A DNA stretch of 64,000 bases, from positions 1,944 to 65,943 of the forward strand of contig JBHHYE010000008.1 of NCBI GenBank assembly GCA_046757405.1, written 5' to 3'. This DNA comes from Acidobacteriota bacterium (GTDB taxonomy: Bacteria; Acidobacteriota; Polarisedimenticolia; SMYD01). The position numbers and the translations under genes are program-made. Under the pieces are notes generated by a model, which was not told the DNA's origin, did not search any database, and worked only from the letters and a program-made list of their open reading frames with translations. Shown here in pieces: positions 10,215 to 64,000 of this stretch. Positions within the stretch are counted from its first letter, which is position 1. Each line of letters begins with the position of its first letter.

Positions 10215-10232
10215 GGGAGCACGGAGTCCCGA

Positions 10233-13468: not shown

Positions 13469-13471
13469 GTC

Positions 13472-14845: not shown

Positions 14846-14902
14846 CTGCGCAGTATAGGTCTTTCTTGACCTGGTGGTGGGGGGTCGCTACGATCATCTG
14901 TC

Positions 14903-15478: not shown

Positions 15479-15491
15479 CCGGGGGGCCGGG

Positions 15492-16685: not shown

Positions 16686-16775
16686 GGCCATGGCTTCCTC
16701 GGATCGGCTGAAGCTCCCGGTAGGCTCCCAGTCCGCGTGCCGGAGCTCGTAACGATAGGCGAAGTACTGTTCCAT

Positions 16776-17933: not shown

Positions 17934-18033
17934 CTGGTCAGCCGGGGGAACGGGGGCCTGATGGAGGGGCGGGGGGAAGCCGGGGGAAAGGGCACCAGGG
18001 GAGGTCCGGGGCGATCTCCCGGCGCGGCGGCCT

Positions 18034-47447: not shown

Positions 47448-47555
47448 GACCGTCTCTGTCTCTTCATGGGACAGAGGGGCACCTGCACTGTCCTCTTCCG
47501 GGTCAGGGGAATCGACGCCCGCTCCGCCGCACGGGATACTGAGGAACGGACTCGC

Positions 47556-47571
47556 CTGGCATCCGGTTTGC
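47556..47571 (+). promoter_or_regulatory. Sigma54 (-24/-12) promoter candidate upstream of minor-pilin operon
   Basis: cTGGCATccggtTTGCt matches the TGGCAC-N5-TTGCW consensus with GG and GC correctly spaced. Confidence 0.5.
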
Positions 47572-47587
47572 TCACCCTCCGGCCGGC

Positions 47588-48960: not shown

Positions 48961-50369
48961 AACCGCCGGGTGCCGCGGGTGGAGCGCTTCCGGCGGCCCT
49001 GGTCCTGCTCCTGGTCTTGACCCTGGTGGCGACGCATCTGTCGTTGATGGCGCTGACCGCCCGGCTCGGCGTTGCCCGCGCCGCGGCCGGGGACCAGAGC
49101 TACCGGATCGCGGAGGGGCTGATCCTCCTGGCGGCCACCAAGAACGCGGGGGCGCTGGCCGCTTCCCTTGCGGATGGCACGCCTCTTGGCCTGGACATGG
49201 GGGTTCTGGGTCAACCGAGGTCCGCCGGGTCGGTCCGGGTCATGGATGACCTGGATGGTGACGGGGATCCGGCCGTGGACGCCAACGGAAGACTCTTCCT
49301 GACAGCGGAAGGCCGGTTTCCAGTGGGCGGGGTGATCCGCGCCAGCCGCCGGGTTCTGAGCCAGGAGGCCCTGGTGGGCGGGTTGACTCCCTTGCCGGCC
49401 GCCATCGTGGACTGCCAGGGCCTCGCGGCGATGTGCGGGGGGACGGCCGGGTGCCCGGTCCCGGCTTCCCGCGTGGACGGCGGCTCACGGCCCGCCCTGG
49501 CGGCGACCGCCACCGGGCAAGACCGCCTCCGGCAGCGCCTGTTCCTCCTCTATCGGGAGATCCTCCGCGCCGCCGATCTCAGGTGCGGCACCGGGTCGTC
49601 AGCCTGCACCCCAGACGATGAGGACCTGAGGCGGGCCGCCAGCACCGACGTGCTCCGGGCGATGGAGGATCCGTCCGCAGATGCGCTGGGCCTTGACTCC
49701 CTGGAAATGAGCCGGCTCATTTCCAACCTCTTGATGCTGTCCGGGGATGAATCGGGAGCCGGCACCGCCGTCTGGTTCGACGGATCGGCGCGGCCGGTCA
49801 CCGATCGAGCTTTGCTGGTGGCTGCCACGGAGAATCTCGGCCGGCCGGCGGGGCATGTCCCCGATCTGGCCGGGCATCCCGTGACCCTCCTTCTGGAGGC
49901 GGGCAAACCGCTGGGTTCCGATGGCGGGCTCTGCCGCCGTCTCGCGGCCCTGTTGCCGGCCGCCATGGTCCGCGCCATGGAGATCCCGGCCGCGGCCATC
50001 GGCCCGGCTCCGGGGCCGCCTCCCGCGAGAGGCACCTTCGTTCTGAGCCGCGACCTCCGCCTGGAGCCGGGCCAGGCCCTGGCTGGAGAAGGGCTCCTGG
50101 TGGTGGAGGCCACCCTGCGGATCGATACGGGCGCGGAAATCCACTGGTCGGGCGCTCTCGTGCTCGCCGGCGGGCGCATCCAGGGCCCCGGAATCGTGCA
50201 GGTGGAAGGCGGTGTCCTGGACAGCGGCCGGCGGGCGGATGGCTCCCCGGGGCTCGACCTGTCGGCAAGCCAGTGGCAGGTGCAGGCCGACCCGGCGCGA
50301 AACGCGGCCGCCTGGGCTCCGGCCGGAACGGTTCTCCTGTCGTCGTGGGAGGAGGTGCCGGGAGAATGA
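48957..50369 (+). CDS. PilX-like minor pilin with large C-terminal domain
   Basis: ATG overlaps the upstream stop (ATGA). N-terminal hydrophobic helix MKPPGAAGGALPAALVLLLVLTLVATHLSLMAL; a ~420-aa soluble domain follows. Confidence 0.55.
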   Translation: MKPPGAAGGALPAALVLLLVLTLVATHLSLMALTARLGVARAAAGDQSYRIAEGLILLAATKNAGALAASLADGTPLGLDMGVLGQPRSAGSVRVMDDLDGDGDPAVDANGRLFLTAEGRFPVGGVIRASRRVLSQEALVGGLTPLPAAIVDCQGLAAMCGGTAGCPVPASRVDGGSRPALAATATGQDRLRQRLFLLYREILRAADLRCGTGSSACTPDDEDLRRAASTDVLRAMEDPSADALGLDSLEMSRLISNLLMLSGDESGAGTAVWFDGSARPVTDRALLVAATENLGRPAGHVPDLAGHPVTLLLEAGKPLGSDGGLCRRLAALLPAAMVRAMEIPAAAIGPAPGPPPARGTFVLSRDLRLEPGQALAGEGLLVVEATLRIDTGAEIHWSGALVLAGGRIQGPGIVQVEGGVLDSGRRADGSPGLDLSASQWQVQADPARNAAAWAPAGTVLLSSWEEVPGE

Positions 50370-50538
50370 GGGGGTCCAGTTCCCGCGCCGGCAGTCGGCG
50401 GAGCGGGCGTTCAGAAACTTGATTCCCTGGATCGCGAAACCCATATTGATCCCGGTCTCCGGCCGGGCAAAAACCCGCGGGTTGACCGGAAACCGGCGCC
50501 ACGGACTCGCCTGTCGGGCCGTCAGAAGGGGAAACTCC

Positions 50539-52254
50539 ATGGCTATAAAGCTGGGCTGGATGCTAGTGAATGCCAATATCATCACCGATGCCCAGCTGCA
50601 GGAGACCCTGGAATACCAGAAGAAGAACGGCGGAAAGCTCGGCTTCAACCTGGTCAAGCTGGGTTTTTGTACGGAAGAGGAGATCACCGAGTTCCTCTCC
50701 CAGCAGTACGGCGTTCCCAGCGTCAACCTGCGCCACTTCGAGACCGATGAGGAAGTTTACAAGCTGATCCCGGCGGAAGTGGCGCAGAAATATCTCATCA
50801 TGCCCCTGTCCCGGACGGGGGCCACCCTCACCATCGCCATGGTGGATCCCACCAATGTCTTCGCCATGGATGACATCAAGTTCATGACCGGTTACAACGT
50901 GGAACCGGTGGTTGCCTCCGAGATGGCGATCAAGGAAGCCATCGAGAAGTACTACGGATCCAGCCATTCTCTCGAGCTCAAGAAGGTCATGGATGAAATG
51001 GCCGCCAGCACCACCGAGGAGCTCGAGGTTCTGGACGAGGACGAGGAGCTCGATCTCAGAAGCCTCGAACAGGCTTCCGAAGAAGCCCCCGTCGTCAAGC
51101 TGGTGAATATCATCCTGACCGATTCCATCAAACGCGGCGCCTCGGACATCCACATCGAGCCGTACGAGAAGGATTTCCGCGTCCGGTTTCGTATTGACGG
51201 CGTCTTGTACGAGATCATGCACCCACCGCTGAAACTACGGGATGCCATTCTTTCGCGGCTCAAGATCATGTCCAAGCTCGACATCTCTGAGAAGCGATTG
51301 CCGCAGGATGGGCGCATCAAGATCAAGATGAAGGTGGCGGGACGGAACAAGGAGATGGACTTCCGTGTCTCGGTGCTGCCGACTCTTTATGGTGAAAAGA
51401 TCGTCCTGCGTCTCCTCGACAAGGATAACCTGGTCCTGGACATGCGCCGCCTGGGCTTCGACGACGAATCCCTGGAAAAGTTCGAGCGCGCCATCTTTCG
51501 TCCGTATGGAATGGTCCTGGTCACGGGGCCGACGGGATCGGGGAAAACGAACACGCTGTACTCGGCCATTCATACGGTGAACACTCCCGAGACCAACATC
51601 ATGACGGCCGAGGATCCGGTGGAGTTCAACCTGCACGGGGTCAACCAGGTGCAGGTCAGAGAGGCCATCGGGCTGACCTTCGCGGCCTCTCTGCGGTCTT
51701 TCTTGCGCCAGGACCCCAACATCGTTCTGGTCGGAGAGATCCGCGACTTCGAGACCGCGGAAATCGCGGTGAAGGCGGCCTTGACCGGGCACCTGGTTCT
51801 CTCCACCTTGCACACCAATGATGCTCCCTCCACCATCAACCGCCTGATGAACATGGGGATCGAGCCGTTCATGGTTTCCACCTCGGTCCATCTGATCTGC
51901 GCACAGAGGCTCGTGCGGCGGATCTGCAAGGAGTGCAAGGAGCCGTTCCGCCTGGCCCCGCAGGCGTTGATCGATATCGGCCTGGACGAGACAGAGGCGG
52001 CGAAGCTCAAGCTCTTCAAAGGGGCAGGCTGTCAGACATGCAACAACACGGGATACAAGGGCCGTGTTGGACTGTATGAAGTCATGGAAATCGGCGAGGG
52101 TCTCAGGGAGATGATTCTTTGCGGCGCGTCGTCGGTCGAGCTCAAGAAAAAGGCCATCGAGGACGGGATGATGACCTTGCGTGCCAGCGGACTTCAAAAG
52201 ATCAAGATGGGAATCACGACGGTGGAAGAGGTCATTCGGGAGACCGTCCAGTAA
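50539..52254 (+). CDS. pilB: Type IV pilus assembly ATPase PilB (GspE family)
   Basis: N-terminal GSPII domain, Walker A VTGPTGSGKTNTLYSAI, Asp/His boxes, and the tetracysteine CKECKE...CQTCNNTGYKGR. Confidence 0.9.
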   Translation: MAIKLGWMLVNANIITDAQLQETLEYQKKNGGKLGFNLVKLGFCTEEEITEFLSQQYGVPSVNLRHFETDEEVYKLIPAEVAQKYLIMPLSRTGATLTIAMVDPTNVFAMDDIKFMTGYNVEPVVASEMAIKEAIEKYYGSSHSLELKKVMDEMAASTTEELEVLDEDEELDLRSLEQASEEAPVVKLVNIILTDSIKRGASDIHIEPYEKDFRVRFRIDGVLYEIMHPPLKLRDAILSRLKIMSKLDISEKRLPQDGRIKIKMKVAGRNKEMDFRVSVLPTLYGEKIVLRLLDKDNLVLDMRRLGFDDESLEKFERAIFRPYGMVLVTGPTGSGKTNTLYSAIHTVNTPETNIMTAEDPVEFNLHGVNQVQVREAIGLTFAASLRSFLRQDPNIVLVGEIRDFETAEIAVKAALTGHLVLSTLHTNDAPSTINRLMNMGIEPFMVSTSVHLICAQRLVRRICKECKEPFRLAPQALIDIGLDETEAAKLKLFKGAGCQTCNNTGYKGRVGLYEVMEIGEGLREMILCGASSVELKKKAIEDGMMTLRASGLQKIKMGITTVEEVIRETVQ

Positions 52255-52280
52255 CCGCGCTGCCAGGAGGAAGAGCGCAG

Positions 52281-53402
52281 ATGGCAATCACATTGCACCA
52301 GCTCCTGAAGACTCTCGTGGAACAGGGTGGCACTGATTTGCATGTCACCACCAATTCCCCGCCCCAGATCCGTATCAATGGCCGTCTGGTCCCCTTGCAA
52401 CTGCCGCCCATGACGGCTTCCGAGACGAAGCAGCTCATCTATTCGGTGCTCACGGATAACCAGAAGCACCGGTTCGAGGAGAACCTGGAGCTCGACCTGT
52501 CGTTCGGGGTGAAGGGGCTCGCCCGGTTCCGTGCCAACGTTTTCCTGCAACGGGGAGCCGTGTGCGCCGCCTTCCGGACCATCCCCTGGGAAATCAAGGG
52601 GTTCAAGGAGCTCGGCCTTCCCGACATCGTCGAGAAGCTCAGCGACAGGCCGCGCGGACTGGTCCTGGTGACGGGCCCGACGGGATCGGGGAAATCCACC
52701 ACGCTGGCCGCCATGCTCGACAGGATCAACACGGAGCGCAACAGCCACATCGTCACCATCGAGGATCCAGTCGAGTTTCTTCACTCCCACAAGAAATGCA
52801 TTGTCAATCAGCGCGAGCTCAATGCCGATACGTTGTCATTCAGCAACGCCCTGCGCTCTGTTCTGCGCCAGGATCCCGATGTTGTTCTCATCGGCGAGAT
52901 GCGTGATCTTGAAACCATCGAGGCGGCGCTGAGAATTGCAGAGACCGGGCACCTGACATTCGCGACTCTGCACACCAATTCCACGGTTCAGACCATCAAC
53001 CGGATCATCGACGTCTTTCCGGCGTACCAGCAAAGCCAGGTGCGGGCCCAGCTCTCCTTTGTGCTCGAGGGGATTCTCTGCCAGACGTTGCTGCCCATGT
53101 CCACCAATGCGGGGCGGGTCATGAGCATGGAAATCATGGTTCCCAACGCCGCCATCCGGAACCTCATCCGGGAAGACAAGATCCATCAGATCTACTCCAT
53201 CATGCAGACGGGGCAGGCCAAATTCGGTATGCAAACTTTCAACCAGTCGCTGGCCTCCTTGTTCCTCAAGAAGAAGATCACTCTGGAGGTCGCGCGCAGC
53301 GCGTCGTCCAAGCCCGAAGAACTCGACGACATGATCAGCCGGGGCTCCGGGCTTATCTATGAGACCCGGCCCAATGCCGCGGCCCGCAGGGCCCGGCGGT
53401 AG
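52281..53402 (+). CDS. pilT: Twitching-motility retraction ATPase PilT
   Basis: Walker A VTGPTGSGKSTT, the PilT-specific AIRNLIRE motif, ~370 aa. It lacks the long N-terminal extension of PilB. Confidence 0.9.
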   Translation: MAITLHQLLKTLVEQGGTDLHVTTNSPPQIRINGRLVPLQLPPMTASETKQLIYSVLTDNQKHRFEENLELDLSFGVKGLARFRANVFLQRGAVCAAFRTIPWEIKGFKELGLPDIVEKLSDRPRGLVLVTGPTGSGKSTTLAAMLDRINTERNSHIVTIEDPVEFLHSHKKCIVNQRELNADTLSFSNALRSVLRQDPDVVLIGEMRDLETIEAALRIAETGHLTFATLHTNSTVQTINRIIDVFPAYQQSQVRAQLSFVLEGILCQTLLPMSTNAGRVMSMEIMVPNAAIRNLIREDKIHQIYSIMQTGQAKFGMQTFNQSLASLFLKKKITLEVARSASSKPEELDDMISRGSGLIYETRPNAAARRARR

Positions 53403-53435
53403 GCCAGCCCGGAACCGGCCCGAAGGAGGTACCTG

Positions 53436-54638
53436 ATGCCGACCTATTCATGGAAAGGGCGCAACCCCGCAGGTGTCATGCAGGAAGGCGTCCTGTCCGC
53501 GGACAGCAAGGAAGCGCTGGTGGGCATGCTGCGCAAGCAGCAAATCCTGGTCACGGCCGTGACCGAGAAGGGGAAGGAATTCGCCCTGCCCAAGTTCGGG
53601 GGCGGAGTCAAGCAAAAAGAGATCGCCATCTTCACCCGGCAGTTCAGTGTCATGATCGATGCAGGTTTGCCACTGGTCCAGTGCTTGGAAATCCTGGCTG
53701 GACAGCAGGTCAACCGGGTCTTCAAGAAGGTTCTGGTCAATGTCCGGCAGGATGTGGAAGCCGGGGCTACCTTGGCCGATTCCCTACGGAAACATCCGAA
53801 AGTCTTCAACGCTCTGTACTCCAACATGGTGGCCGCCGGCGAGACCGGCGGTATTCTTGACACGATCCTGCAGCGCCTTTCCACCTACATTGAGAAGATT
53901 GTCAAGCTGCGCGGCGCGGTGCGCTCAGCCTCCGTCTATCCGGTCGCCGTGATTACCATCGCCGTGGGGGTGGTGACGATCATTCTGTGGAGAGTCATCC
54001 CGACTTTCGCGACTCTCTTCGAGGGGCTAGGCGCCCAGCTGCCGCTGCCGACGCGGATCACCATCGCCATTTCCGAGTTCCTGGGACGATGGATGCCGGT
54101 GCTGGTTCTCATGGTCGGCCTGCTCATTTTCGCGATCTTCCGTTACCACAAGACCCATTCGGGCAGGCGGTGGATCGACCGCTTGGTCCTCAAGATACCC
54201 GTGCTCGGCTCCCTGTTGCGAAAGATCGCCGTGGCGCGATTTTGCCGGACTCTCGGGACGTTGATCTCATCGGGTGTTCCGATCCTCGAGGGGCTGGAAG
54301 TCACGGCCAAGACGGCCGGCAACTCGATCGTCGAGGATGCCATCATGGCGACCCGGAAGAGCGTGGAGGAGGGGAAGAATCTGGCGGTGCCCCTGGGAGA
54401 CACCAAGGTCTTCCCTTCCATGGTCGTGCAGATGATCGCCGTGGGCGAACAGACGGGCGCCATGGACGCCATGCTGGCCAAGATCGCGGACTTTTACGAG
54501 GACGAAGTGGACGAGGCAGTGGCCAATCTTCTTGCCCTGATGGAACCGGTGATGATAGTCTTCCTGGGGACGATCATCGGCGGCATCGTGATTTCCATGT
54601 ATATGCCGCTGTTCTCGCTGATCAACAAGATCGGGTGA
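53436..54638 (+). CDS. pilC: Type IV pilus inner-membrane platform protein PilC (GspF family)
   Basis: Two GspF repeats (FTRQFSVMIDAGLPLVQCLEIL... and ...FCRTLGTLISSGVPILEGLEV), ~400 aa. Confidence 0.9.
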   Translation: MPTYSWKGRNPAGVMQEGVLSADSKEALVGMLRKQQILVTAVTEKGKEFALPKFGGGVKQKEIAIFTRQFSVMIDAGLPLVQCLEILAGQQVNRVFKKVLVNVRQDVEAGATLADSLRKHPKVFNALYSNMVAAGETGGILDTILQRLSTYIEKIVKLRGAVRSASVYPVAVITIAVGVVTIILWRVIPTFATLFEGLGAQLPLPTRITIAISEFLGRWMPVLVLMVGLLIFAIFRYHKTHSGRRWIDRLVLKIPVLGSLLRKIAVARFCRTLGTLISSGVPILEGLEVTAKTAGNSIVEDAIMATRKSVEEGKNLAVPLGDTKVFPSMVVQMIAVGEQTGAMDAMLAKIADFYEDEVDEAVANLLALMEPVMIVFLGTIIGGIVISMYMPLFSLINKIG

Positions 54639-54751
54639 GAGAGACGAATCGTCTCCGGCTCGGATGGGGAGCTTGAACCAGTCAGGCGGTGCGCCTCGAC
54701 GGCTGAGAGCGCATTGATGCCATTGGGCGCGCGACTCCGCATACCGGCTCT

Positions 54752-56446
54752 ATGACAGACACCCTCTACAAAATCCGGCTCTTGATGGTGGTCCGGGTGG
54801 TGGCGGTGACGGCCCTGCTCGTGGTGGCCTTCCTGGTAGAGTTATGGTTCCAGCCGGCACGCTCGCTTCGCCCTCTTTATATTCTCACCGCGGCCACTTA
54901 CTCCCTCACCATCATCTATGGATTGCTCTATGCGACTCTCCGCGAGCAGCAGGTCTTCATCCATTTACAGCTGATCGGCGACATCCTGGCCAGTTCGGCT
55001 TTTGTCTACATAACGGGCGGGACGACCAGCCCTTTTTCATTTCTCTATGTTCCGGTCATTCTCGCCGCGGGCATGCTGCTCTACCAGCGGGGCGCGTACA
55101 CCTTCGCCTGTCTCTCCTCCCTGGCCTACGGAACCCTGGTTGTGGCCATCTTGACGGGAGTGCTCCCGGTGTATCCCCCCGGGTCGATGCAGATCTCCGC
55201 AGCGGAGTTCAAGCGCGCCAGTTTTGCACTTATGGTCCACTTCCTGGGGTTCGGACTGGTGGCCATCCTGGCCTCGGCCCTGTCGGAAAGTCTCCGTCGG
55301 ACCGGCGAGGAGCTGGGAACCACCCGCGAGAATCTGGAAGACCTGCAGGTGTTCAATGCCCTGATCATTGATTCGGTGAATTCGGGCCTGATCACCGCCG
55401 ATCCGGCCGGCCGGATTACCTTCCTGAACCGCGCCGCCCGGGAAATAACGGGGCTCATGGAATCATTCGCCCGGGAGCGATCCATTCAGGATCTTTTTGA
55501 TTTGCCGGATGATTTCATCGAACGCCTCAACCGATGCCTGGCGCGGGCCCGCCGTTTTCGATTCGAGGTGCGCTACCAGGTAGCGGCGGGCGTCAACCGG
55601 ATCCTTGGATTCACCGCGGGACTGCTTCGCGACAAGGAGCGCATGCCACTGGGCTATATCTTCACCTTCCAGGATCTCACGGAGATCAAGGCTCTGGAAA
55701 AAGAAGTGCTGGTACGTGAGAGAATGGCAGCCGTGGGAGAGATGGCGGCCGGGATGGCCCATGAGCTGCGGAATCCACTGGCATCCATGAGTGGTTCGGT
55801 ACAAGTTCTCGGAACCGGTATTCCCACGGAGCGGCGCGACCAGATGGAGCTCCTGGAAATCATCCAGAGGGAGTCCCTGCGCCTTGACCAGGTGTTGAAA
55901 GATTTTCTTTCCTTCGCCCGGCCGCGGCCTTTCAATCCAGAATTGACCGATCTGGTCGGTCTCCTGACCGATCTTGTCCGCTTGCTCAAGAATTCTCCAG
56001 GATTGCTTCCCGCCCACCAGGTCGTGACCACCTTTGCATGCCAGTCGCTTCCCTGTCACGTGGATGTCGATCGCATCAAACAGGTTTTCTGGAACCTTGC
56101 CAGTAATGCTCTGCGGGCCATGCCCGCGGGCGGACGCCTGGAGATCTCCGCCGGCCCCGCCCGGGATGGCATGGTGGCCTTCTCGTTCACGGACACGGGC
56201 CACGGGATGACCGCCGAAGAGATGAGGAATTTTTTCAGGCCGTTCCGCTCCCGGTTTGACGGGGGGACCGGGCTCGGAACCGCCATCGTCTACCGTATTG
56301 TGCAGGAGCACAACGGACGCACGACCGTTGACTCGGAACCGGGGCGCGGCACCAAGGTCGTGGTGTCGATCCCGGCGCAGCCCGTAGGGACGACCGATTA
56401 TCGTGAGGAGAATCGATGGGAGCAATTGGTCGAGCACGTGTCCTGA
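54752..56446 (+). CDS. pilS: Sensor histidine kinase PilS-like (polytopic N-terminus, PAS, HisKA, HATPase_c)
   Basis: Six N-terminal TM helices, then the H-box MAAGMAHELRNPL and N/G boxes (GGRLEISAG..., GTGLGTAIV). It is adjacent and co-oriented with pilR. Confidence 0.8.
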   Translation: MTDTLYKIRLLMVVRVVAVTALLVVAFLVELWFQPARSLRPLYILTAATYSLTIIYGLLYATLREQQVFIHLQLIGDILASSAFVYITGGTTSPFSFLYVPVILAAGMLLYQRGAYTFACLSSLAYGTLVVAILTGVLPVYPPGSMQISAAEFKRASFALMVHFLGFGLVAILASALSESLRRTGEELGTTRENLEDLQVFNALIIDSVNSGLITADPAGRITFLNRAAREITGLMESFARERSIQDLFDLPDDFIERLNRCLARARRFRFEVRYQVAAGVNRILGFTAGLLRDKERMPLGYIFTFQDLTEIKALEKEVLVRERMAAVGEMAAGMAHELRNPLASMSGSVQVLGTGIPTERRDQMELLEIIQRESLRLDQVLKDFLSFARPRPFNPELTDLVGLLTDLVRLLKNSPGLLPAHQVVTTFACQSLPCHVDVDRIKQVFWNLASNALRAMPAGGRLEISAGPARDGMVAFSFTDTGHGMTAEEMRNFFRPFRSRFDGGTGLGTAIVYRIVQEHNGRTTVDSEPGRGTKVVVSIPAQPVGTTDYREENRWEQLVEHVS

Positions 56447-57876
56447 TCGTCGACGACGAGAAGTCGATGCGGGAATTGCTGGCGATTGCCCTGGAGCCTG
56501 ACCAGCTCGAGGTGAAGGCGGTTGCCTCGGTGGCCGATGCCCGGAGGGCGATGCAGGAAAGTCCTTTTGACCTGGTGGTGTCTGACATCGCCATGCCCGG
56601 AGAAAGCGGCATGGAGCTCCTGGCCGAGCTCCGCCGGTCCAGCCCCCAGCTCCCTGTCATTCTCATCACCGCCTACGCATCCATGGAGTCGGCGAAACGC
56701 GCTTTTTCATTGGGTGTTTATGATTGCGTCGACAAGGGCGCGAGCTTCAACATCGAGGAATTCCGCGCGACGGTGCGCAACGCCATCCAGTCGCGCCAGG
56801 TGCTTCAAGAGAACCAGATCCTCAAGAAGCAGCTCAAGAACCGGCATGGACCCGGGACCCTGGTGGCCCGCTCCCGGAAAATGCAAGCCGTCTGCGATCT
56901 CATTGATCGGGTGGCGCCGACGCGCTCCACGCTGTTGATCACCGGCGAGAGCGGCACAGGCAAGGAAGTGGTGGCCCGGACCATTCATTATTCCGGCCCA
57001 GGGGCCGAGGCCCCCTTTGTCTCCATTAACTGCGGCGCCATGCCCTCGGAATTGCTGGAGAGCGAGCTGTTCGGCCACATGAAGGGTGCGTTCACCGGCG
57101 CCCTGGCGGCCAAGCAAGGATTGTTTCAAGCGGCCCGCGAGGGTACGGTCTTTCTGGATGAGATCGGAGAGATGCCGCCGTCAGCGCAGGTGAGACTCCT
57201 CCGGGTCTTGCAGGAACGGACCATCCGGATGGTGGGTGGGACCGAGGAGATCGAAGTCGAGGCGCGGGTGGTGGCGGCCACCAACGCAGACCTGGCCGCC
57301 AAGGTCGAGCAGGGTGCCTTCCGGGCGGACCTTTACTACCGGATCAATGTCATTCCCATTCATCTACCGCCTCTCCGTGAGCGCCTGGAAGACATCTCGG
57401 CTCTTGCCCAGCTCTTCGTCCGGAGATTCGCCCGCGAGCTCGGCCGTGAGGCGCCTGAGTTTTCGCCGGAGTCCCTGCGCGCGCTGGAAGAGTACGCCTG
57501 GCCCGGGAACGTGCGCGAGCTGGAGAATGCGATCCAGCGGGCCGTGACCCTGGCCGGTGAGGGGGCCATCACGCCGGATGTGCTGCCGGCGGCGATCACG
57601 GAAAAAGACGCCGTGGGCGCTCCACCAGGAGAAGGGCGCCTGGAGACCGTCTCGCCCACGCTGATCCCGGAAGGACAGAACCTGGACCAGTACCTGGGAA
57701 CCATCAAGGCCTCGCTCATGGAGCGGGCCCTGGAGGAGTCCAACCATGTCCAGGTGGAGGCGGCGCGGCGCCTGGGCATGTCGTTCCGGTCGTTCCGGTA
57801 CTTCGCCAAGCAGCTGGGAGTTCACGTTCATCCGGAGAGCCGTGAGCGAGAGGGCGGACGAGGGTCCAAAGGGTGA
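56416..57876 (+). CDS. pilR: Sigma54-dependent response regulator PilR (NtrC family)
   Basis: REC domain (VLIVDDE...D at the phospho-site), AAA+ sigma54-activator core (GESGTGKE, GAFRADLYYRINVIPIHLPPLRER), and a C-terminal Fis-type HTH. Confidence 0.9.
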   Translation: MGAIGRARVLIVDDEKSMRELLAIALEPDQLEVKAVASVADARRAMQESPFDLVVSDIAMPGESGMELLAELRRSSPQLPVILITAYASMESAKRAFSLGVYDCVDKGASFNIEEFRATVRNAIQSRQVLQENQILKKQLKNRHGPGTLVARSRKMQAVCDLIDRVAPTRSTLLITGESGTGKEVVARTIHYSGPGAEAPFVSINCGAMPSELLESELFGHMKGAFTGALAAKQGLFQAAREGTVFLDEIGEMPPSAQVRLLRVLQERTIRMVGGTEEIEVEARVVAATNADLAAKVEQGAFRADLYYRINVIPIHLPPLRERLEDISALAQLFVRRFARELGREAPEFSPESLRALEEYAWPGNVRELENAIQRAVTLAGEGAITPDVLPAAITEKDAVGAPPGEGRLETVSPTLIPEGQNLDQYLGTIKASLMERALEESNHVQVEAARRLGMSFRSFRYFAKQLGVHVHPESREREGGRGSKG

Positions 57877-60347
57877 CGGTCACTTCCGGCAGGGGCCGGT
57901 TCATGGCCCCGCCGATCCTGGGCGTTACCCTGGCGGCCTTCGCCGGAGCCCTGAGCGGCGGCACCCTCTATTTTCGAGACCTGATTCTTCTTCACCGTCC
58001 TGTCCGCGTGGCCATCCGCCGCCTGTGGAGAGCGGGAATCGTGCCTCTCTGGGATCCCTGGCAGGATGGTGGGCGCGTTCTCCTCGCCAACCCGAACCAC
58101 CAGGTTCTCCATCCGACGGCTCTCCTGGACCTCTTCTTCTCGGTGGACACCGCCCTTGCCGCCGCCATGGTCGTGCAGGTTTTCCTGGCCGGCTGGGGAC
58201 TGGCCCTGTTCCTCAAGGACCGGGGCGCGACCCCCGCCGCGGCCCGGATGGGAGGGATGACCTACGCGCTTTCCGGCCCCGTGCTGTCGCTGGGCAATCT
58301 TCCCAACCTGATGGGGTCGATTGCCTGGGTGCCCCTGGTGCTCTGGGCCGGCTGCCGGGCGTTCCGATCGCCGGGGCTCTGGGTCCCGCTCGCCGCGTTC
58401 CTGGCCGCGATTCCGGCCTTGAGCGGCGGCGTCGAATCTCTCGGAGTGGCCGCGCTGATCCTCGGGGCTTTGGCCCTCTGGCACCCGGACCGGTTGCGGC
58501 GGCTCGGTATCACCGCGAGCATCACCGTGGGGGGACTCATGCTGGCGGCGGTGCAGCTTCTTCCCGCCTGGGAGACCTTGCGCGACTCCGAGCGCGGGCT
58601 GGGATTCCAGCCGGACCAGATCTTTTACTGGTCCTTTTCTCCCATTCGTTTCCTGGAAGCCGCCATCCCCCGGCTCTGGGGCCTGCCCACCGACCGGGCC
58701 GCCTGGTGGGGCGAGGCGGTGTTCGACGGGGGATGGCCTCTCATCCTCTCGACGTACCTGGGGGCCGGTGTGCTGGTCCTGGCCGGGGTTGGCGGCAGCG
58801 TGGCCATCGGACGTTTCGTCGGGCGCGCCGGACGCTTCCGGCGAATGGCCGCGGCGCGGTTGCCGGACGAGATGTGGCAGTCCACGCTGGTCGCAGGATG
58901 GACCGGGACCGGTCTCATGCTGCTGGCTCTGGGACGTCACAATCCGCTCCTGACGCTCTGGGGCGGCCTGCCCAGGGCAGGGGGGGCCATTCTTCGTTAT
59001 CCGGAGCGACTGGTCCCGCTGGCTGTGCTGGCCGTTGCGGTGGCTGCCGCAGCCGGCTGGCAGGTGCTGGCGGCGGCGAGACAGGAAAAGGAGGCTCTGC
59101 CACGGAGCTGGTGGATGGCGGCCGCCACCATGGTCCTCCTGCTCGGTCTGGCCGGAGCCATGGCGCGGTGGGCCGGCCTCCATCCCGTCGGACTGTACCA
59201 GCCGGCGCTTTCGGCGCGGGCTGCGGCTGCCCTGGTCCTCCCCGTGGTCAAGGCCGTGGCAGGGCTCTGGGTGGTGGCCGTGTGTGTCTGGATGGCCGGC
59301 CGGCCGCGGCGCGAATCTCTTGCCGCGGGCCTTCTGTTCCTTGCCCTGTCGGCGGATCTCCTGGCTGCGAACGGAGCACTGAATCCCACCATGGATCCAG
59401 GGCTGATGGCGTCCGAGCCCGCGGCGGCCAGGTTCCTTGCCTCGCTGGAGAGCAGCGATCGTCCGGAGGAGAGGCCCTGTGTCGTGCGTGGTGTCGAGCC
59501 CCGTGGGCCGTGGGCCGCGGCTCCGTCCGGCGAGGCGGCCGTCTGGTCCCGCCACAGCCTGGCTCTCAGGATCCCGGAGGAGTTCGGGTTGGCGACCTCC
59601 TTGACCCGGGACGTGGACCGCTCCACCCCCCTGGGCAACGCGTATCTGCGTGTCGCCCACCGGCAAGCCACGGGTGCATCCCGGGAGCGGCTGGCGGATC
59701 GTGCCGGAGCCTCCTGGGAGCTGGGATTCGATCCCGGGCCGTCCCCGATTCCCGCGGGCGCTCCCTTCCACCAGAAGGTCCTGCCCGGGGCTCCGGCCGT
59801 GGTCCTCTGGCCGCGGCCCGACGCGGCGCCGCGGATCAGCATCGTGCCCCGCGGGATCGCCCTGGGAAGGCTTGCCGCGCCGGGAGGGCTTCAACGGCTC
59901 CTGGCCCGGCTCGGCGACCCCGGCTCCGACCCGCGGCGCGAGGTTTTTCTCTCAGGGCGCCAGTCCCGCCCCGTGGAGGGACACTGGGAGCCCGCGGCGG
60001 GACGCGCCGACCTGGTCGTGGAGACGCCGCTCCACCTCGAGATCGCCACGCAGGCGCCCGGCCCCGGGGTTCTGGTGGTCCGCGATTCACTGGCGCGCGG
60101 CTGGCAGGCGCGTCTGGACGGGCGCCGGGTCGAGGTTGTGCGCGCTGACCTGGCCTGGCGGGGAGTCGTCCTGCCGGCCGGCCTCCACCGGGTAAGCTTC
60201 GTGTACCGCCAGCCGGGCCTGGTTGCCGGGACCGCGTGCAGCGCGATGGCCCTGGCGGTTCTCCTGGGCGTGGCCGGCCGATCGGTACGCCGTCACGGGC
60301 GGTGGCAGGCAGCCCGCCAGGCCGAGAACGGCCGGAGGGCCGCTTGA
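57873..60347 (+). CDS. YfhO-family-like polytopic membrane protein (GT-C-fold glycosyltransferase candidate)
   Basis: About 13 N-terminal TM helices and a ~300-aa extracytoplasmic C-terminal domain. It ends GWQARLDGRRVEVVRADLAWRGVVLPAGLHRVSFVYRQPG plus a terminal TM helix, closely resembling the conserved YfhO C-terminus (..W.A.VDGK.V...AN.AFRGV.LPAG.H.V.F.Y.P). Confidence 0.6.
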   Translation: MTVTSGRGRFMAPPILGVTLAAFAGALSGGTLYFRDLILLHRPVRVAIRRLWRAGIVPLWDPWQDGGRVLLANPNHQVLHPTALLDLFFSVDTALAAAMVVQVFLAGWGLALFLKDRGATPAAARMGGMTYALSGPVLSLGNLPNLMGSIAWVPLVLWAGCRAFRSPGLWVPLAAFLAAIPALSGGVESLGVAALILGALALWHPDRLRRLGITASITVGGLMLAAVQLLPAWETLRDSERGLGFQPDQIFYWSFSPIRFLEAAIPRLWGLPTDRAAWWGEAVFDGGWPLILSTYLGAGVLVLAGVGGSVAIGRFVGRAGRFRRMAAARLPDEMWQSTLVAGWTGTGLMLLALGRHNPLLTLWGGLPRAGGAILRYPERLVPLAVLAVAVAAAAGWQVLAAARQEKEALPRSWWMAAATMVLLLGLAGAMARWAGLHPVGLYQPALSARAAAALVLPVVKAVAGLWVVAVCVWMAGRPRRESLAAGLLFLALSADLLAANGALNPTMDPGLMASEPAAARFLASLESSDRPEERPCVVRGVEPRGPWAAAPSGEAAVWSRHSLALRIPEEFGLATSLTRDVDRSTPLGNAYLRVAHRQATGASRERLADRAGASWELGFDPGPSPIPAGAPFHQKVLPGAPAVVLWPRPDAAPRISIVPRGIALGRLAAPGGLQRLLARLGDPGSDPRREVFLSGRQSRPVEGHWEPAAGRADLVVETPLHLEIATQAPGPGVLVVRDSLARGWQARLDGRRVEVVRADLAWRGVVLPAGLHRVSFVYRQPGLVAGTACSAMALAVLLGVAGRSVRRHGRWQAARQAENGRRAA

Positions 60348-62098
60348 GAAGGTGGGCCACGATTCTGGTTCTTGCCGCGTTAGGATGCGCCGCTCTCTCT
60401 GCGGGAAGCGGCGCCATACGCTCGTTTGACTTCGGCTGGCACCTGCGCGCCGGAGAGTCGATTCTCGAGCATCATGGGCGGCCTCCTCGGGCCGACCCCA
60501 TTGCTTATACCAGCGGATCCGCCGAGTGGATCGACCACGAGTGGCTTTTCCAGCTGATCCTGGCTCTCCTGGTCCAGGCGGGAGGTCTGAAGGGGGCGTG
60601 GCTGCTGAAACAGACTCTCATCCTGGTCGGGGTGCTGGTTCCGGCCGCCTGGCTGTTGCGGATGAATCACTCTCCCTTGGCGGTGGCCTCCTTGGGGGTT
60701 CTGGCTCTGGCGGGCGGCCGGTTCCGTTTTTCTGCGCGGCCGGAGATGGTCGCCGTCGCCTTCTTGCCCGCTCTCCTGATCGTCCTGGTGGTCGCCCACC
60801 GACGCGCACGGCGGGGAGCGCGGATGGTCCCACTCCTGGCGCTGGTCCCGATCCTGGTGCTGGGCTGGGTGAACCTGCATCTTTCCGCCTTGCTGGCAGC
60901 TCTCCTGGTTGTCGTCTTCGCCCTGGCCGTGCTCATCGAGCAACGGGGAACCGATCGGATCAGCCGGCCGTTCCTGGTGACGGCTGTTCTGGCGGGGGCC
61001 GCTCTCCTGGCCAACCCGTACGGGACCCGTCTCCTGGCGGTTCCTTTTTCCATTCATACAGCCCTCACCAGCGGGGGATTGACCAACCCCGAGTGGGGAA
61101 GTGCACTGCACAGCCGTTTCGGGCTTTTCTGGACGGTCTTGCTCGCCGCCGGCACCGGCCTCCTCCTGGCCCGCCGGGCAGGCAGGAGAATGGTCCTGCC
61201 GGTGGCGGCCTGTGCGGCGGTTCTGGCTGTCGCCGGGGGTGCTGCCGCTCGCACCCTGAGTTGCTTCTACATGGCCTTGCCGGTCTGCGCCCTCGCCGTC
61301 ACCACCGGCAAGCAGTCCGGTGCGGCACAGGAAGTGCGGGCGGGATGGCGTGGCCGGGTTTCGGCCGGGGCGGCCGTCGGTCTTCCGCTCCTGGCAGCGG
61401 GTCTCTTCATGCTCTTTCCCGGGGGAGCTCCAGGGGGAGTCGGACTGGCCCCGGGACGCTTTCCCGAGGCGATGGCGTCCACCTACCAGGAGATGGGACT
61501 GCGCGGCCCGATCTACAATCCGGTCCGTTTCGGTGGATATCTTTCCTGGGCCCTGGCGCCCCAGAAGGTGTTCATCGATGGACGCAACGAGGTCCACGGA
61601 GAGCTCCTCTCCCGCCTGGCGGCCTGCCGGATGGCGACCCGACTGGAGTGCTGGGATCGGCTCGTGGAGCGATGGGATACTCAGGCGGCGTTCGTGGAAT
61701 ATGATCCACGCCGCATTCCGGTCCGCCTGCCTGATGGACGCTTCATCTCACGCAGCGTGTCATCGGTCTACTTCAGGCGGGATTCCTGGGCGCTGGTGGA
61801 CTGGGATGACGTCGCCATGCTTCTGGTCCGGCGAGGCGGCCGGAACGCCGAGCGGATCGACGGCCAGGAGGACCGGGTACTGATGCCCGAGGATCCAGAA
61901 TATTTTTACCGGGAGCTCAGAGCGGGGCGGATCGACTGGCGGGAAGCCCAGCGAGAGGTGAGCCGGCGGCTGGCCCGGCATCCAGATTCCCGGAAGGCCC
62001 GCCTGCTCCAGGAGATCGTGCGCCGGCTGGAGGTTGAGGTGAATGAGGGGAAAAATCGTCCACCGGTGGTCCGGGTGACGGGCAGTGGCGGGGACTGA
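60344..62098 (+). CDS. Polytopic membrane protein with acidic first-loop motif (GT-C-like glycosyltransferase candidate) and ~190-aa C-terminal soluble domain
   Basis: TTG 60344 overlaps the upstream stop. TM1 is followed by a periplasmic-loop motif SAEWIDHEWLFQ (GT-C-like DxD/ExD position), then 10 or more TM helices and an Arg/Glu-rich soluble C-terminus. Confidence 0.55.
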   Translation: MRRWATILVLAALGCAALSAGSGAIRSFDFGWHLRAGESILEHHGRPPRADPIAYTSGSAEWIDHEWLFQLILALLVQAGGLKGAWLLKQTLILVGVLVPAAWLLRMNHSPLAVASLGVLALAGGRFRFSARPEMVAVAFLPALLIVLVVAHRRARRGARMVPLLALVPILVLGWVNLHLSALLAALLVVVFALAVLIEQRGTDRISRPFLVTAVLAGAALLANPYGTRLLAVPFSIHTALTSGGLTNPEWGSALHSRFGLFWTVLLAAGTGLLLARRAGRRMVLPVAACAAVLAVAGGAAARTLSCFYMALPVCALAVTTGKQSGAAQEVRAGWRGRVSAGAAVGLPLLAAGLFMLFPGGAPGGVGLAPGRFPEAMASTYQEMGLRGPIYNPVRFGGYLSWALAPQKVFIDGRNEVHGELLSRLAACRMATRLECWDRLVERWDTQAAFVEYDPRRIPVRLPDGRFISRSVSSVYFRRDSWALVDWDDVAMLLVRRGGRNAERIDGQEDRVLMPEDPEYFYRELRAGRIDWREAQREVSRRLARHPDSRKARLLQEIVRRLEVEVNEGKNRPPVVRVTGSGGD

Positions 62099-62259: not shown

Positions 62260-62275
62260 TGGCATTCCCTTTGCG
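62260..62275 (+). promoter_or_regulatory. Sigma54 (-24/-12) promoter candidate for pilA
   Basis: cTGGCATtccctTTGCg matches TGGCAC-N5-TTGCW, ~37 nt upstream of the pilA start, with an AAGGAGG RBS at 62297-62303. An AT-rich stretch at 62190-62235 is a possible UAS/IHF region. Confidence 0.55.
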
Positions 62276-62311
62276 ACAGGGTCAAGCCAAACTCTAAAGG
62301 AGGTGACTGTG

Positions 62312-62785
62312 GTGAACAGAAAGCAAGAAGGATTCACACTGATCGAGCTGCTGATTGTCGTGGCGATTATCGGTATCATCGCCGCCATCGCCATCCCGAA
62401 CCTGCTCAATGCCATCGATCGCGGCAAGCAGAAGCGGAGCATGGCTGATCTTCGGTCCGTCGGAACAGCCGTGGAAGAGTATGCCATTGACAACTCTTTC
62501 TATCCCAACGTGGCTGCCGAGGCCAACATCGCCGGTTCCGCCGTGGAGACCTCGATCGAGCCGGTCTATATCCGCAATGCTCCGACCGAGGATGGGTGGG
62601 GCTTCAACATGCGGTATATCAGCGACACGACCGTCTACACGGTTGGTTCCCTGGCCAAGGATGGTGCGGCGGGCGGCAATCTCACCATCAACAGCACCAA
62701 CGGTCGGACCACCGACTTTGACTGCGACATCATTTTCTCCAACGGCTCCTTTGTCCAGTGGCCGGAAGGAACGCAGGCTGACTGA
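62312..62785 (+). CDS. pilA: Type IV major pilin PilA (T4a, GspG-like fold)
   Basis: A short leader precedes G|FTLIELLIVVAIIGIIAAIAIPN (E+5). GTG starts are possible at 62303, 62309 or 62312, downstream of a strong RBS. C-terminal disulfide-pair Cys (DFDCD). Confidence 0.85.
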   Translation: MNRKQEGFTLIELLIVVAIIGIIAAIAIPNLLNAIDRGKQKRSMADLRSVGTAVEEYAIDNSFYPNVAAEANIAGSAVETSIEPVYIRNAPTEDGWGFNMRYISDTTVYTVGSLAKDGAAGGNLTINSTNGRTTDFDCDIIFSNGSFVQWPEGTQAD

Positions 62786-62806
62786 GCCTGATAGGCCGTG
62801 AGGAAT

Positions 62807-62850
62807 AGCGGCGGTGGCCTCGAGGGAGTCCACCGCCGCTTTCCCTTTCT
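62807..62850 (+). terminator. Intrinsic terminator-like hairpin after pilA
   Basis: 11-bp GC-rich stem AGCGGCGGTGG/CCACCGCCGCT with a 12-nt loop, followed by TTCCCTTTCT. Confidence 0.5.
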
Positions 62851-62879
62851 CGCGCCAGGGATCCAGGAGGGCCGCCAGG

Positions 62880-63335
62880 ATGTTCGAGACCCGGGGGAAC
62901 AATCATCGTGCGGAGGGGTTCACCCTCATCGAGCTTCTGGTCGCGGTCACCATCATCGGGATCGTTGCCACCATCGCGGTGCCGGCGCTGAACACGGCCA
63001 TGGAGAAATCCCGCCAGCGCGCGACCGTCGCCAACATGCGCGCCGTGGGGAACGCGCTCCAGATCTACCAGAACGATCTGACGTCGTTCCCCCCGGGCAC
63101 GCTGGATATCAACCAGCTGGCGGTCGCCCTCCTGGGAGTCACCAAACGGCCGATCCCGGTACACGATTCATGGGGCCGGGATTTCGACTATCGTTCGGAC
63201 GGGCTGGTGGAGTATTCAGTGGAGAGCTTTGGCCGCGACGGGGTGCCTGGAGCCGACATTTCTCCCGCGCAAGCCAATAACTTTGACCTGGATATCGTCC
63301 TGAGCGACGGTATCTTCGTCGCCTCGGTCAACTGA
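62880..63335 (+). CDS. Second type IV pilin (PilA paralogue, GspG-like)
   Basis: MFETRGNNHRAEG|FTLIELLVAVTIIGIVATIAVP (E+5). It is paralogous to pilA (SMADLRSVGTAVEEY vs TVANMRAVGNALQIY). Start at ATG 62880. Confidence 0.8.
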   Translation: MFETRGNNHRAEGFTLIELLVAVTIIGIVATIAVPALNTAMEKSRQRATVANMRAVGNALQIYQNDLTSFPPGTLDINQLAVALLGVTKRPIPVHDSWGRDFDYRSDGLVEYSVESFGRDGVPGADISPAQANNFDLDIVLSDGIFVASVN

Positions 63336-63393: not shown

Positions 63394-64000
63394 CATGGTC
63401 GCCGACGCCGGAGAGAAACCTTCTCTCCTCTTTTTTCTTCTTTGCGGTTTACTGGGCACGCTCTGGGTCGCTCCGCCGGAGATTTACCCCGGGGCCGCGT
63501 TTCTCGCCGCCTTGCTGCTTCCCGCCCTGGGGGGAACGCTCCTCTGGACCGGCTGGTTGCCGGACCGCGGCCAGAGATGGTTCCTGGCGGCGCTCGTCTT
63601 GCCGCTGGCGATCTCCCACCATTTCGCCCTGGACAACGGTGGATCTCTGCACAGCATGATCCGGTTGGCCGGGGCTCTGATCCTGTTTGCGGCCGCACGG
63701 CGGGTCTCCCCGGCGGAGGCGCGTGGCTTGCTGATGCTCCTGGCGGGAGGGATGGCGGTTCTTTCCCTCCATGGTCTCTGGCAGTACCTGGTGGGCTTCG
63801 ATCGCCTTCTGGCGGACCGGGGCCTGCCGGCCGGCGTGGTGGAACGGCTGCAGACCTACCGGGTCTTCGGCCGCTCGGTTCTGCCATCGGTGTTCGCGTC
63901 CCTGCTTTTCCTGGCTCTTCCGGTCTCTGTGGGCCTTGCTTCCGCCGCCCGTGGTCTGGCCCGGCTCGCCTGGGGAATGGCCGCCCTTCTCTCCGGCGTG
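63394..64000 (+). CDS. O-antigen ligase (Wzy_C) family-like membrane protein, partial (candidate pilin O-oligosaccharyltransferase, PglL/TfpO-like)
   Basis: ATG 63394 opens a frame without stops to the window end (not in the track because it has no stop). Multiple TM helices, and RVFGRSVLPSVFASLLFLALPV resembles the Wzy_C motif R..G...NPN..A..L....P. Confidence 0.5.

Follow-up and report, generated by a model that had tools for sequence, protein, structure and literature searches.

Near its 3' end, the window (the whole stretch of DNA analysed, 64 kb) carries a set of type IV pilus genes in which two genes for large membrane proteins are embedded. The features of this locus are listed in Table 1, where gene 1 denotes the YfhO-like gene under study and gene 2 its 3' neighbour. 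The source organism is an uncultured MAG. The initial annotation of gene 1 did not mention three of its neighbours, namely gene 2, the two pilin genes with their own promoter, and the Wzy_C-like gene. An EPS or O-antigen-type cluster is found in another part of the window, at 2–18 kb.

Table 1. Genes and elements at the pilus locus (positions in the window)
Feature	Position	Strand	Basis
pilB, extension ATPase, 571 aa	50539..52254 (ORF opens 50212)	+	tblastn against L001 and L004
pilT, retraction ATPase, 373 aa	52281..53402	+	~85% identity to L001 T2SSE gene
pilC, platform protein, 400 aa	53436..54638	+	orthologue in T2SSF family
pilS, sensor kinase, 564 aa	54752..56446	+	Pfam PF25323 6TM_PilS, PAS, HisKA, HATPase_c
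pilR, sigma-54-dependent response regulator, 486 aa	56416..57876	+	Pfam Response_reg, Sigma54_activat, AAA_lid_14, HTH_8
gene 1, divergent YfhO-family GT-C glycosyltransferase (predicted)	57873..60347	+	ORF, Pfam, homologues, profile-profile, AlphaFold model, hydropathy
gene 2, second GT-C-fold membrane protein (predicted), 584 aa	60344..62098	+	TTG start, fold, homologues
sigma-54 promoter-like element TGGCAT-N5-TTGC	62260..62274	+	motif
pilA1, type IVa major-pilin-like	62303..62785	+	Pfam N_methyl, T2SSG
pilA2, second pilin, 151 aa from ATG	62880..63335	+	Pfam, alignment
Wzy_C/O-antigen-ligase-like membrane protein, 5' part, reaches window end	63395..64000	+	open frame from ATG
GC-rich hairpin and T-run, terminator-like (predicted)	63410..63428	+	sequence scan

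An exact-sequence look-up of the gene 1 protein gave no matching record; its genomic context was taken instead from the loci of homologues, and the related-locus searches with the close alignment A3 gave four and seven loci. pilB is 84–88% identical to the T2SSE/MshEN genes at the matching position in the related loci L001 and L004. The pilS and pilR frames overlap by 31 nt.

Read from the GTG at 57873–57875, gene 1 encodes 824 residues. The alternative is the ATG at 57903, which gives 814 residues, lies 26 nt past the pilR stop, and is the start used in the public MAG annotation (ACE5HD_03770). The GTG start is favoured, because the homologues of gene 1 bear an N-terminal extension of 10–12 residues. 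The junction reads ...AAAGGGTGACGG..., and the GTG overlaps the TGA stop of pilR (57874–57876) to form GTGA. This overlap, to which the initial annotation had drawn attention, is also kept in the loci of all seven close relatives retrieved. Whichever start applies, the interval before gene 1 is too short to hold a promoter region of its own with the usual extent.

Long spurious ORFs overlap gene 1 on both strands (57746–60148 on the plus strand and 57828–59894 on the minus strand), which would be compatible with gene 1 itself being a high-GC artefact or a pseudogene. The probability of this is, however, negligible, because the frame of gene 1 has the highest GC3 (0.82) among the competing frames, and because 160 homologues (E ≤ 1e-3), a confident fold, and conserved synteny already refute it. 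The GC content of gene 1 (0.715) and gene 2 (0.684) is raised in comparison with that of pilB to pilR (0.59–0.64), which prompted consideration of a horizontal insertion of the two genes. This was set aside, because the synteny is kept across deep divergence and because membrane proteins rich in Ala, Gly, and Arg raise the GC content in any case.

The TTG start of gene 2 overlaps the stop of gene 1 to form TTGA, and a scan for sigma-70 promoters and terminators from pilR to gene 2 found nothing beyond chance. Gene 1 would share a transcript with pilS-pilR and gene 2, and its translation is probably coupled to theirs. The pilins have a separate predicted sigma-54 promoter. Its element lies about 30–40 nt 5' of the pilA1 start with an AT-rich stretch further upstream, and the same motif occurs just 5' of pilA in six related loci (L001, L002, L004, L007, L012, and L013). 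It appears that genes 1 and 2 belong to the regulator operon and stand off the sigma-54-driven pilA transcript, and hence their expression need not follow that of the pilins.

Translation of pilA1 probably starts at one of two GTG codons (62309 or 62312), 3' of an AAAGGAGG ribosome-binding site. In the alignment, the C-terminal tail of PilA1 (QWPEGTQAD) is conserved among the orthologues; the pilA2 product has no tail of this type. Neither pilin has an obvious Ser/Thr-rich tract like those of the streptococcal acceptors, and only the short conserved tail and scattered Ser/Thr residues are present. The frame that begins at 63395 shares 52% identity with the N-terminal part of an L001 gene bearing PF04932 (Wzy_C), a domain that is present in the orthologues in L001, L013, L015, and L017. 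The 202 codons within the window end before the Wzy_C domain and give no Pfam match. The terminator-like hairpin lies 3' of pilA2, within the first codons of this gene.

The Pfam family PF09586 (YfhO) matches gene 1 over residues 741–790 only, corresponding to profile positions 786–835 of 835, with a score of 30.0 bits against a cut-off of 28.5 bits (E 2.3e-7). The match is likewise confined to the C-terminus in 30 of the 31 relatives. When the clade profile A1 was compared by hhalign with the profile A4 (P0087, P0102, P0049, and P0097), a probability of 100% and an E value of 4.8e-89 were obtained over 736 aligned columns. Within A4, the best PF09586 stretch falls on the membrane domain (profile positions 78–602) in P0087, P0102, and P0049, and on the C-terminus in P0097. 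As judged from these profiles, the YfhO homology of gene 1 extends over the membrane domain, beyond the C-terminal motif.

Searches of PDB chains with the gene 1 sequence and the family profile yielded nothing useful. To our knowledge, no YfhO structure has been solved, and the fold was therefore tested through a predicted model. In the AlphaFold2 model (pLDDT 90.9, pTM 0.92), the helices extend to about residue 493, a beta-rich domain continues to about 770, and the final helix spans 773–809. By hydropathy, a hydrophilic stretch of 281 residues precedes the last membrane segment, and the tail beyond it is basic. The predicted layout is thus a membrane domain (~1–500), an external beta-rich domain of about 280 residues, a last membrane helix, and the tail. 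The model displays a GT-C membrane fold, and its architecture matches that described for Bacillus subtilis YfhO, in which a large extracytoplasmic domain separates the last two of about 13 membrane helices (PMC5836110). The initial annotation had taken the C-terminal motif for the YfhO signature and had named a profile search and the predicted topology as checks; the motif scores above the Pfam cut-off, and both checks point to the same family. On the profile-profile and model evidence, gene 1 is predicted to be a divergent, full-length member of the YfhO family of GT-C glycosyltransferases.

An Asp (D26 in the 814-residue numbering, D36 in the 824-residue numbering), within the motif YFRD, is invariant in 31 of 31 sequences. 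By hydropathy it lies in the loop of 53 residues that follows the first membrane helix, and the motifs RD...HxP, PLW(N/D)P, and GG..LLANPN around it are conserved across these 31 diverse relatives. Judging from hydropathy, charge, and likeness to other GT-C enzymes, D26 probably faces the periplasm. A conserved acidic residue in the predicted first extracytoplasmic loop, as in GT-C enzymes, is found in both genes; gene 2 has a nearly invariant D29 and, in addition, an invariant W32 and D51.

It is conceivable that gene 1 is not a transferase, whether through loss of the activity or because it was never present, and serves the pilin or PilS as a membrane scaffold, chaperone, or signal modulator, for instance by acting on the pool of inner-membrane pilin sensed by PilS. 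Its position in the regulator operon, off the pilA transcript, would suit such a role, and the structural matches to the model include PIG-U and GAB1 of the GPI transamidase, which have the GT-C fold and are not transferases. This explanation is nevertheless improbable, because the invariant Asp and the conserved motifs form the pattern expected for an active site, and the full YfhO architecture is retained.

Gene 2 has no Pfam or NCBIfam match. It stands outside YfhO, in a separate and very large family of about 39,600 cluster representatives, the members of which often carry fused TPR repeats. The genes that follow the YfhO-like gene in two related loci, L013 and L016, were considered as homologues of gene 2 and ruled out (hhalign probability about 0.1%); the one in L013 encodes a sulfatase-family protein.

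In relatives as distant as 29–30% identity, the order pilBTC-pilSR-YfhO-like-X-pilA-Wzy_C is retained, and another YfhO-like clade is found beside pilD and genes for minor pilins. The non-pilus paralogues of gene 1 occur in envelope-glycan-like contexts, beside a GT2-GtrA fusion. No GT2 polyprenyl-phosphate sugar synthase or GtrA-type flippase was found in the 64-kb window by Pfam scans of plausible ORFs, although such genes do flank the non-pilus paralogues in other genomes. Nor is a CsbB-like GT-A or GtcA/GtrA-type flippase gene adjacent to gene 1, a contextual feature that is not a strict criterion of the YfhO family.

Genes 1 and 2 most likely encode membrane enzymes that transfer sugars and that probably decorate a pilus protein. 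Gene order alone cannot separate the pilin from another pilus-related acceptor or from an envelope acceptor. Together with gene 2, gene 1 may instead place single sugars on a non-protein polymer of the envelope (the O-antigen or core of LPS, capsule, or EPS), as YfhO does on teichoic acids and GtrC on O-antigen, and may be co-regulated with the pili through a joint role in adhesion, motility, or phage resistance. The founding characterised YfhO members act on teichoic acids (PMC5836110, PMC8035078), the non-pilus paralogues have the contexts noted above, the window does contain the EPS/O-antigen-type cluster, and Wzy_C proteins are mostly O-antigen ligases or polymerases. However, that cluster is 40 kb away and no glycan-synthesis genes flank gene 1, which lies exactly between pilR and pilA throughout the range of identity given above; moreover, the association with pilD and minor pilin genes is an independent one. 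An envelope acceptor is therefore considered unlikely.

A general periplasmic O-glycosylation, in the style of Neisseria PglL or streptococcal GtrB/PgtC2, would overlap with modification of the pilin and differ from it only in the breadth of substrates, the pilin being one of many or none of them. PgtC2 and PgfM1 target many membrane-associated proteins, PglL-type Wzy_C enzymes are broad-spectrum (PMC9239064), and relatives of gene 2 commonly carry protein-binding TPR domains. It is not obvious, however, why such a system should remain fixed between pilR and pilA over deep divergence, and the probability assigned to it is low, slightly below that of an envelope acceptor.

The interpretation favoured here, with a probability somewhat better than even, is that the locus is a periplasmic pilin-glycosylation module. 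Gene 1 would be a catalytically competent, periplasm-facing GT-C glycosyltransferase and would form, with gene 2 and the Wzy_C-type enzyme 3' of the pilins, one pilin-modification module. In the cytoplasm, an enzyme encoded elsewhere would synthesise a polyprenyl-phosphate-linked sugar, which would be flipped to the periplasmic side. There, the invariant Asp in the first loop of gene 1 would activate the acceptor. The sugar would go to a Ser or Thr of the membrane-embedded pilin before pilus assembly or, alternatively, to a glycan already placed on the pilin by the Wzy_C enzyme, also before assembly. Gene 2 would add or extend a further sugar, like PgfM1/PgfM2 in Streptococcus mutans. Counting against this interpretation are the absence of a GT2 synthase or GtrA-type flippase gene from the window, the pilins' want of an obvious Ser/Thr-rich tract, and the place of genes 1 and 2 in the regulator operon, off the pilA transcript. 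More tentatively, the locus may represent an undescribed three-enzyme pilin-glycosylation island (YfhO-type GT-C, gene 2 GT-C, and Wzy_C) with both GT-C enzymes translationally coupled to PilS/PilR. If so, the system that senses the inner-membrane pilin would also set the capacity for glycosylating it.

The sugars on type IV pilins influence phage resistance, adhesion, and immune recognition, and we know of pilin glycosylation only from a few proteobacterial systems (PilO/TfpO, TfpW, and PglL). Acidobacteriota are abundant in soil and sediment and are hard to culture. A literature search found no link between YfhO and pilins, the few papers containing both terms drawing no connection, and nothing relevant on acidobacterial pilin glycosylation. 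If the pilin is modified as proposed, YfhO-type enzymes would serve pili besides teichoic acids and streptococcal surface proteins, and YfhO-family protein O-glycosylation would extend from Firmicutes to Gram-negative-type bacteria and type IV pili. Acidobacteriota would then hold a conserved pilin-modification cassette within a regulator operon, and a first functional handle would be gained on the very large family of gene 2, whose tested proteins have no Pfam or NCBIfam match. If the pilin is not modified, two 'hypothetical proteins' are still cleanly upgraded to predicted GT-C glycosyltransferases.

Among the known systems, YfhO itself transfers GlcNAc onto lipoteichoic acid in B. subtilis and Staphylococcus aureus, and onto wall teichoic acid in Listeria monocytogenes. 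Gene 1 resembles it in family, by profile-profile comparison and the C-terminal signature, and in the predicted many helices, large extracytoplasmic domain between the last two, and GT-C fold. In contrast, gene 1 belongs to an acidobacterium of Gram-negative type, which has no teichoic acids. Its match to the Pfam model is limited to the last 50 residues, no CsbB-type GT-A or GtcA flippase gene is adjacent, and the gene lies in a pilSR operon adjoining pilin genes. The Gtr system (GtrA flippase, GtrB GT2, and GtrC GT-C) follows the same logic as that proposed here, a lipid-phosphate sugar being made inside, flipped, and transferred outside, but its GT2 and flippase partners are absent from the gene 1 locus and the whole window.

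PgfM1/PgfM2 of S. mutans and PgtC2 of S. pyogenes and S. pneumoniae are YfhO-family enzymes that transfer sugars from undecaprenyl-phosphate to Ser/Thr of extracytoplasmic proteins, and the pgf locus encodes two GT-C enzymes beside their adhesin substrates (PMC12041528). The NCBIfam models of PgfM2 and PgfM1 match the C-terminus of gene 1 weakly, with 18–19 bits against equivalog cut-offs of 1400–1500, and therefore gene 1 is not an orthologue of either. The acceptors in those systems are long disordered regions rich in Ser/Thr; the pilins here have no such regions, and the second GT-C enzyme here is not a YfhO protein.

With PilO/TfpO of Pseudomonas aeruginosa 1244 and PglL of Neisseria, which are Wzy_C-family pilin O-oligosaccharyltransferases, the locus would share a Wzy_C-family gene directly after the pilins, although the copy in the window ends before that domain. 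The target of PilO is the C-terminal Ser of its pilin, and the PilA1 orthologues keep a short C-terminal tail with Thr or Ser. This likeness concerns the neighbour at 63395 and not gene 1, and the Wzy_C domain cannot tell protein O-oligosaccharyltransferases from ordinary O-antigen ligases.

TfpW of P. aeruginosa group IV strains, compared here by description, is a GT-C pilin D-arabinofuranosyltransferase. The name TfpW is absent among the homologue matches of genes 1 and 2, and the window showed no genes for the biosynthesis of D-Araf. TfpW is encoded 3' of pilA, whereas genes 1 and 2 lie 5' of it in the pilSR operon; gene 1 ends in a beta-rich domain, and TPR repeats occur only in distant relatives of gene 2. 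The two systems would nevertheless be alike in several respects: TfpW is a membrane enzyme of GT-C fold encoded beside pilA, glycosylates the pilin on the periplasmic side with a polyprenyl-phosphate sugar as donor, bears an acidic motif on its periplasmic loop 1, and ends in a TPR domain, to which the TPR fusions in the gene 2 family may be compared.

The most economical reading of the YfhO-like gene and its flanking enzymes, with a probability slightly better than even, is that they form a pilin-modification module: the gene has a fixed place between those for the pilin regulators and those for the pilins, with two more enzymes of the same classes on its flanks. The gene immediately upstream encodes a sigma-54 response regulator and is itself preceded by a kinase gene whose product has the PilS-specific domain 6TM_PilS, which justifies the names pilR and pilS; pilB, pilT and pilC also lie upstream in the window.

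The window is part of a MAG from an uncultured member of the Acidobacteriota, and NCBI ACE5HD_03770 is identical to the product of the YfhO-like ORF. This frame is plainly a coding one: its GC3 (0.82) is the highest among the competing frames, it has 160 homologues, and its structure is predicted with confidence (pLDDT 90.9, pTM 0.92); that the ORF is an artefact is hardly conceivable. In the deposited MAG annotation the gene begins at ATG 57903 (814 aa). The sequence comparison favours the GTG at 57873 as the start over this ATG, because the GTG overlaps the pilR TGA likewise in all seven close relatives, whose products have an extension of 10-12 residues ahead of the first membrane helix. 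The overlap described in the initial annotation is present in the sequence (AAAGGGTGACGG, the GTG beginning one base before the TGA) and in these relatives, and would be consistent with co-transcription with pilS and pilR. In more distant pilus-linked relatives, the gap between the two genes is 2-25 nt.

Pfam matches the product to YfhO at 30.0 bits (cut-off 28.5) over the last 50 residues only, which is exactly the C-terminal motif on which the initial annotation relied; the match is likewise C-terminal only in 30 of 31 relatives. In NCBIfam the only matches are weak C-terminal ones, to the PgfM2 and PgfM1 models from streptococci. For the membrane domain, four homologues with PF09586 matches on more than one stretch (in three of them, the best stretch being on the membrane domain) were aligned and compared, profile to profile, with the clade of the window protein. 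The alignment runs end to end over 736 columns (probability 100%, E 4.8e-89). D26 of the 814-residue form, in the motif YFRD, is invariant across 31 sequences with identities to the window protein down to 23%, and lies in a 53-residue loop following the first helix, which is, by analogy, the site where GT-C enzymes hold their catalytic acid. Beside this invariant residue, a non-catalytic scaffold or signalling role appears improbable. Neither a lack of profile homology nor a different topology, either of which, according to the initial annotation, would refute the YfhO assignment, was found, since the homology is full-length and D26 is placed in the loop after the first helix. Judged by profiles and predicted fold, the protein belongs to the YfhO family, broadly defined: the Pfam match, full-length homology, architecture and fold all agree. 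The sole family feature that it lacks is contextual, no adjacent GT-A partner being found.

Coordinates of the features in the window and in homologous loci of other genomes (L001, L012, L013)
Feature	Position	Strand	Remarks
Wzx-like flippase	3232-4809	-	polysaccharide cluster
Sugar epimerase/dehydratase	4794-5849		polysaccharide cluster
WecA-like GT4-family phosphoglycosyltransferase	5863-7677		polysaccharide cluster; CoA_binding_3 domain
Wza	9063-10214		polysaccharide cluster
Wzc	10233-12341		polysaccharide cluster
GT1-family (Glycos_transf_1) glycosyltransferase	16776-18071	-	polysaccharide cluster
YfhO-like ORF	57873-60347	+	ORF call; GTG to TGA, 824 codons
Second GT-C-fold membrane protein	60344-62098	+	no Pfam/NCBIfam match
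Sigma-54 promoter-like element TGGCATTCCCTTTGC	62260-62274	+	200-nt gap precedes
Wzy_C-like ORF	63395-64000	+	60 nt past pilA2; runs off window
Wzy_C gene, L001	13747-15381		O-antigen-ligase family
Sulfatase/alkaline-phosphatase-superfamily gene (PF00884)	L012 ~8330-9900; L013 12151-13722		between YfhO-like gene and pilA

Downstream of the promoter-like element come a strong ribosome-binding site and then two genes for type IV pilins. TGGCAY-N5-TTGC occurs once per locus covering the pilA region, each time just 5' of pilA; the element is kept in six further distinct loci (L001, L002, L004, L007, L012, L013). L001 encodes a 544-aa Wzy_C protein in the same place, and the Wzy_C-like ORF is 52% identical to its start. 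A hairpin with a T-run that resembles a terminator (63410-63428, +) lies right past pilA2, within the first Wzy_C-like codons, and may dampen read-through out of the pilin genes, which are highly expressed. The GC content of the two GT-C genes (57873-62098) is 0.68-0.72, versus 0.59-0.64 in 50539-57876 and 62303-63335.

Between aroK and pilB (~47450-50400, +), a region of strongly negative AT skew, there are ORFs that gave no Pfam match and that encode prepilin-like and PilX-like N-terminal hydrophobic segments (e.g. ...QSGSVLLESLVSLALGLIVIAV... and ...LVLLLVLTLVATHLSLMAL...), and may be divergent minor pilin genes. Another sigma-54 promoter-like element, TGGCAT-N5-TTGC, is found at 47557-47571 (+), upstream of the unannotated region before pilB.

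Synteny was assessed in the 11 distinct loci that an alignment of close homologues retrieved, and the order pilS-pilR, YfhO-like gene, pilA is found in all of them, at 62-48% and 29-30% identity. Two more relatives, on long contigs, show the complete order pilB-pilT-pilC-pilS-pilR-YfhO-like-second GT-C-like-pilA-Wzy_C-Wzy_C(-TPR)-asparagine-synthase-like. In the relatives, pilA is followed by one or two Wzy_C genes, one with TPR, and then by the asparagine-synthase-like gene (loci L015 and L017). In two pilus-linked relatives at ~30% identity (L012 and L013), the second GT-C gene is replaced by a sulfatase-superfamily gene, and pilA is followed by two Wzy_C genes. The sulfatase/alkaline-phosphatase superfamily includes pilin phospho-form transferases, PptA among them. 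Downstream of the pilus locus in L013 is a spermine-synthase/MFS fusion (18400-21021).

Two non-pilus paralogues (L014, 8001-13430; L018, 7001-12402) have as neighbours a GT2-GtrA fusion and a PMT_2 GT-C gene, which is the classic lipid-sugar layout, as well as a large spermine-synthase-domain membrane protein. One family member is in an unrelated context. Two other YfhO-like genes (L019, 7001-9379; L020, 7001-9394) have pilin-like genes on one side and pilD, for the prepilin peptidase, on the other, with genes resembling pilW, pilX and pilY1 after it; they form a separate clade and link the family to type IV pilus genes a second time, independently. In a rough neighbour-joining tree, computed without support values, the pilSR-linked proteins cluster together.

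Comparison of the window with its close relatives gives identities of 84-88% for PilB, PilT and PilC, 80-86% for PilA1, 64-72% for PilS and PilR, and just 47-57% for both GT-C proteins. Divergence is therefore much more rapid in the GT-C enzymes than in the pilin or the pilus machinery. The profile of the second GT-C protein matched 39,557 cluster representatives, 16,257 of them at E<=1e-30; longer members have C-terminal TPR repeats. The family looks very large, with no Pfam match among the proteins tested.

In the proposed module, sugar would be attached to membrane-embedded pilin by the Wzy_C enzyme and/or the GT-C enzymes, the latter adding or extending monosaccharides. What the analysis shows is the gene structure, the family, the fold, the conserved Asp, the synteny and the promoter motif; co-transcription, the orientation of the enzymes in the membrane, their order of action, the lipid-linked donor and pilin as the acceptor are presumed. 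The conserved PilA1 tail QWPEGTQ(A/S)D, which PilA2 lacks, may speculatively be proposed as the sugar acceptor. The main weaknesses of this reading are that no lipid-sugar synthase or flippase gene was found in the 64-kb window, that the pilins have no Ser/Thr-rich tract, and that the GT-C genes lie outside the pilA transcript driven by sigma-54. General O-glycosylation of many different proteins, a system that would overlap with pilin modification, is rather unlikely. The window also contains a polysaccharide cluster of EPS or O-antigen type (1926-18071, including a GDSL-like gene), which could supply a lipid-linked glycan for the Wzy_C enzyme; modification of LPS or EPS instead, co-regulated with the pili, is the less doubtful of these two alternatives, though still an unlikely one. 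The case for a pilin-modification module is well supported and testable, unsurprising in principle and wholly computational.

Characterised members of the YfhO family take their sugar from undecaprenyl-phosphate monosaccharides, which a GT-A partner synthesises and a GtrA-type protein flips. Transfer takes place outside the membrane, to teichoic acids by some members (PMC8035078, PMC5836110) and to protein Ser/Thr by PgfM1 and PgtC2 (PMC12041528). The window protein is orthologous to neither PgfM1 nor PgfM2, its scores being 18-19 bits where the cut-offs are 1400-1500. Pilin glycosylation in Pseudomonas takes place in the periplasm, through either Wzy_C-type enzymes or TfpW, a GT-C enzyme. Both GT-C products of the window are 'hypothetical' in public records, and no paper was found in the literature searched that ties YfhO to pilins or describes a pilSR-GT-C cassette. 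Periplasmic glycosylation of pilins or other proteins that depends on a lipid-linked sugar is the known part, while the YfhO-type enzyme, a further GT-C family lacking any Pfam match and the placement in the pilSR operon are the new elements.
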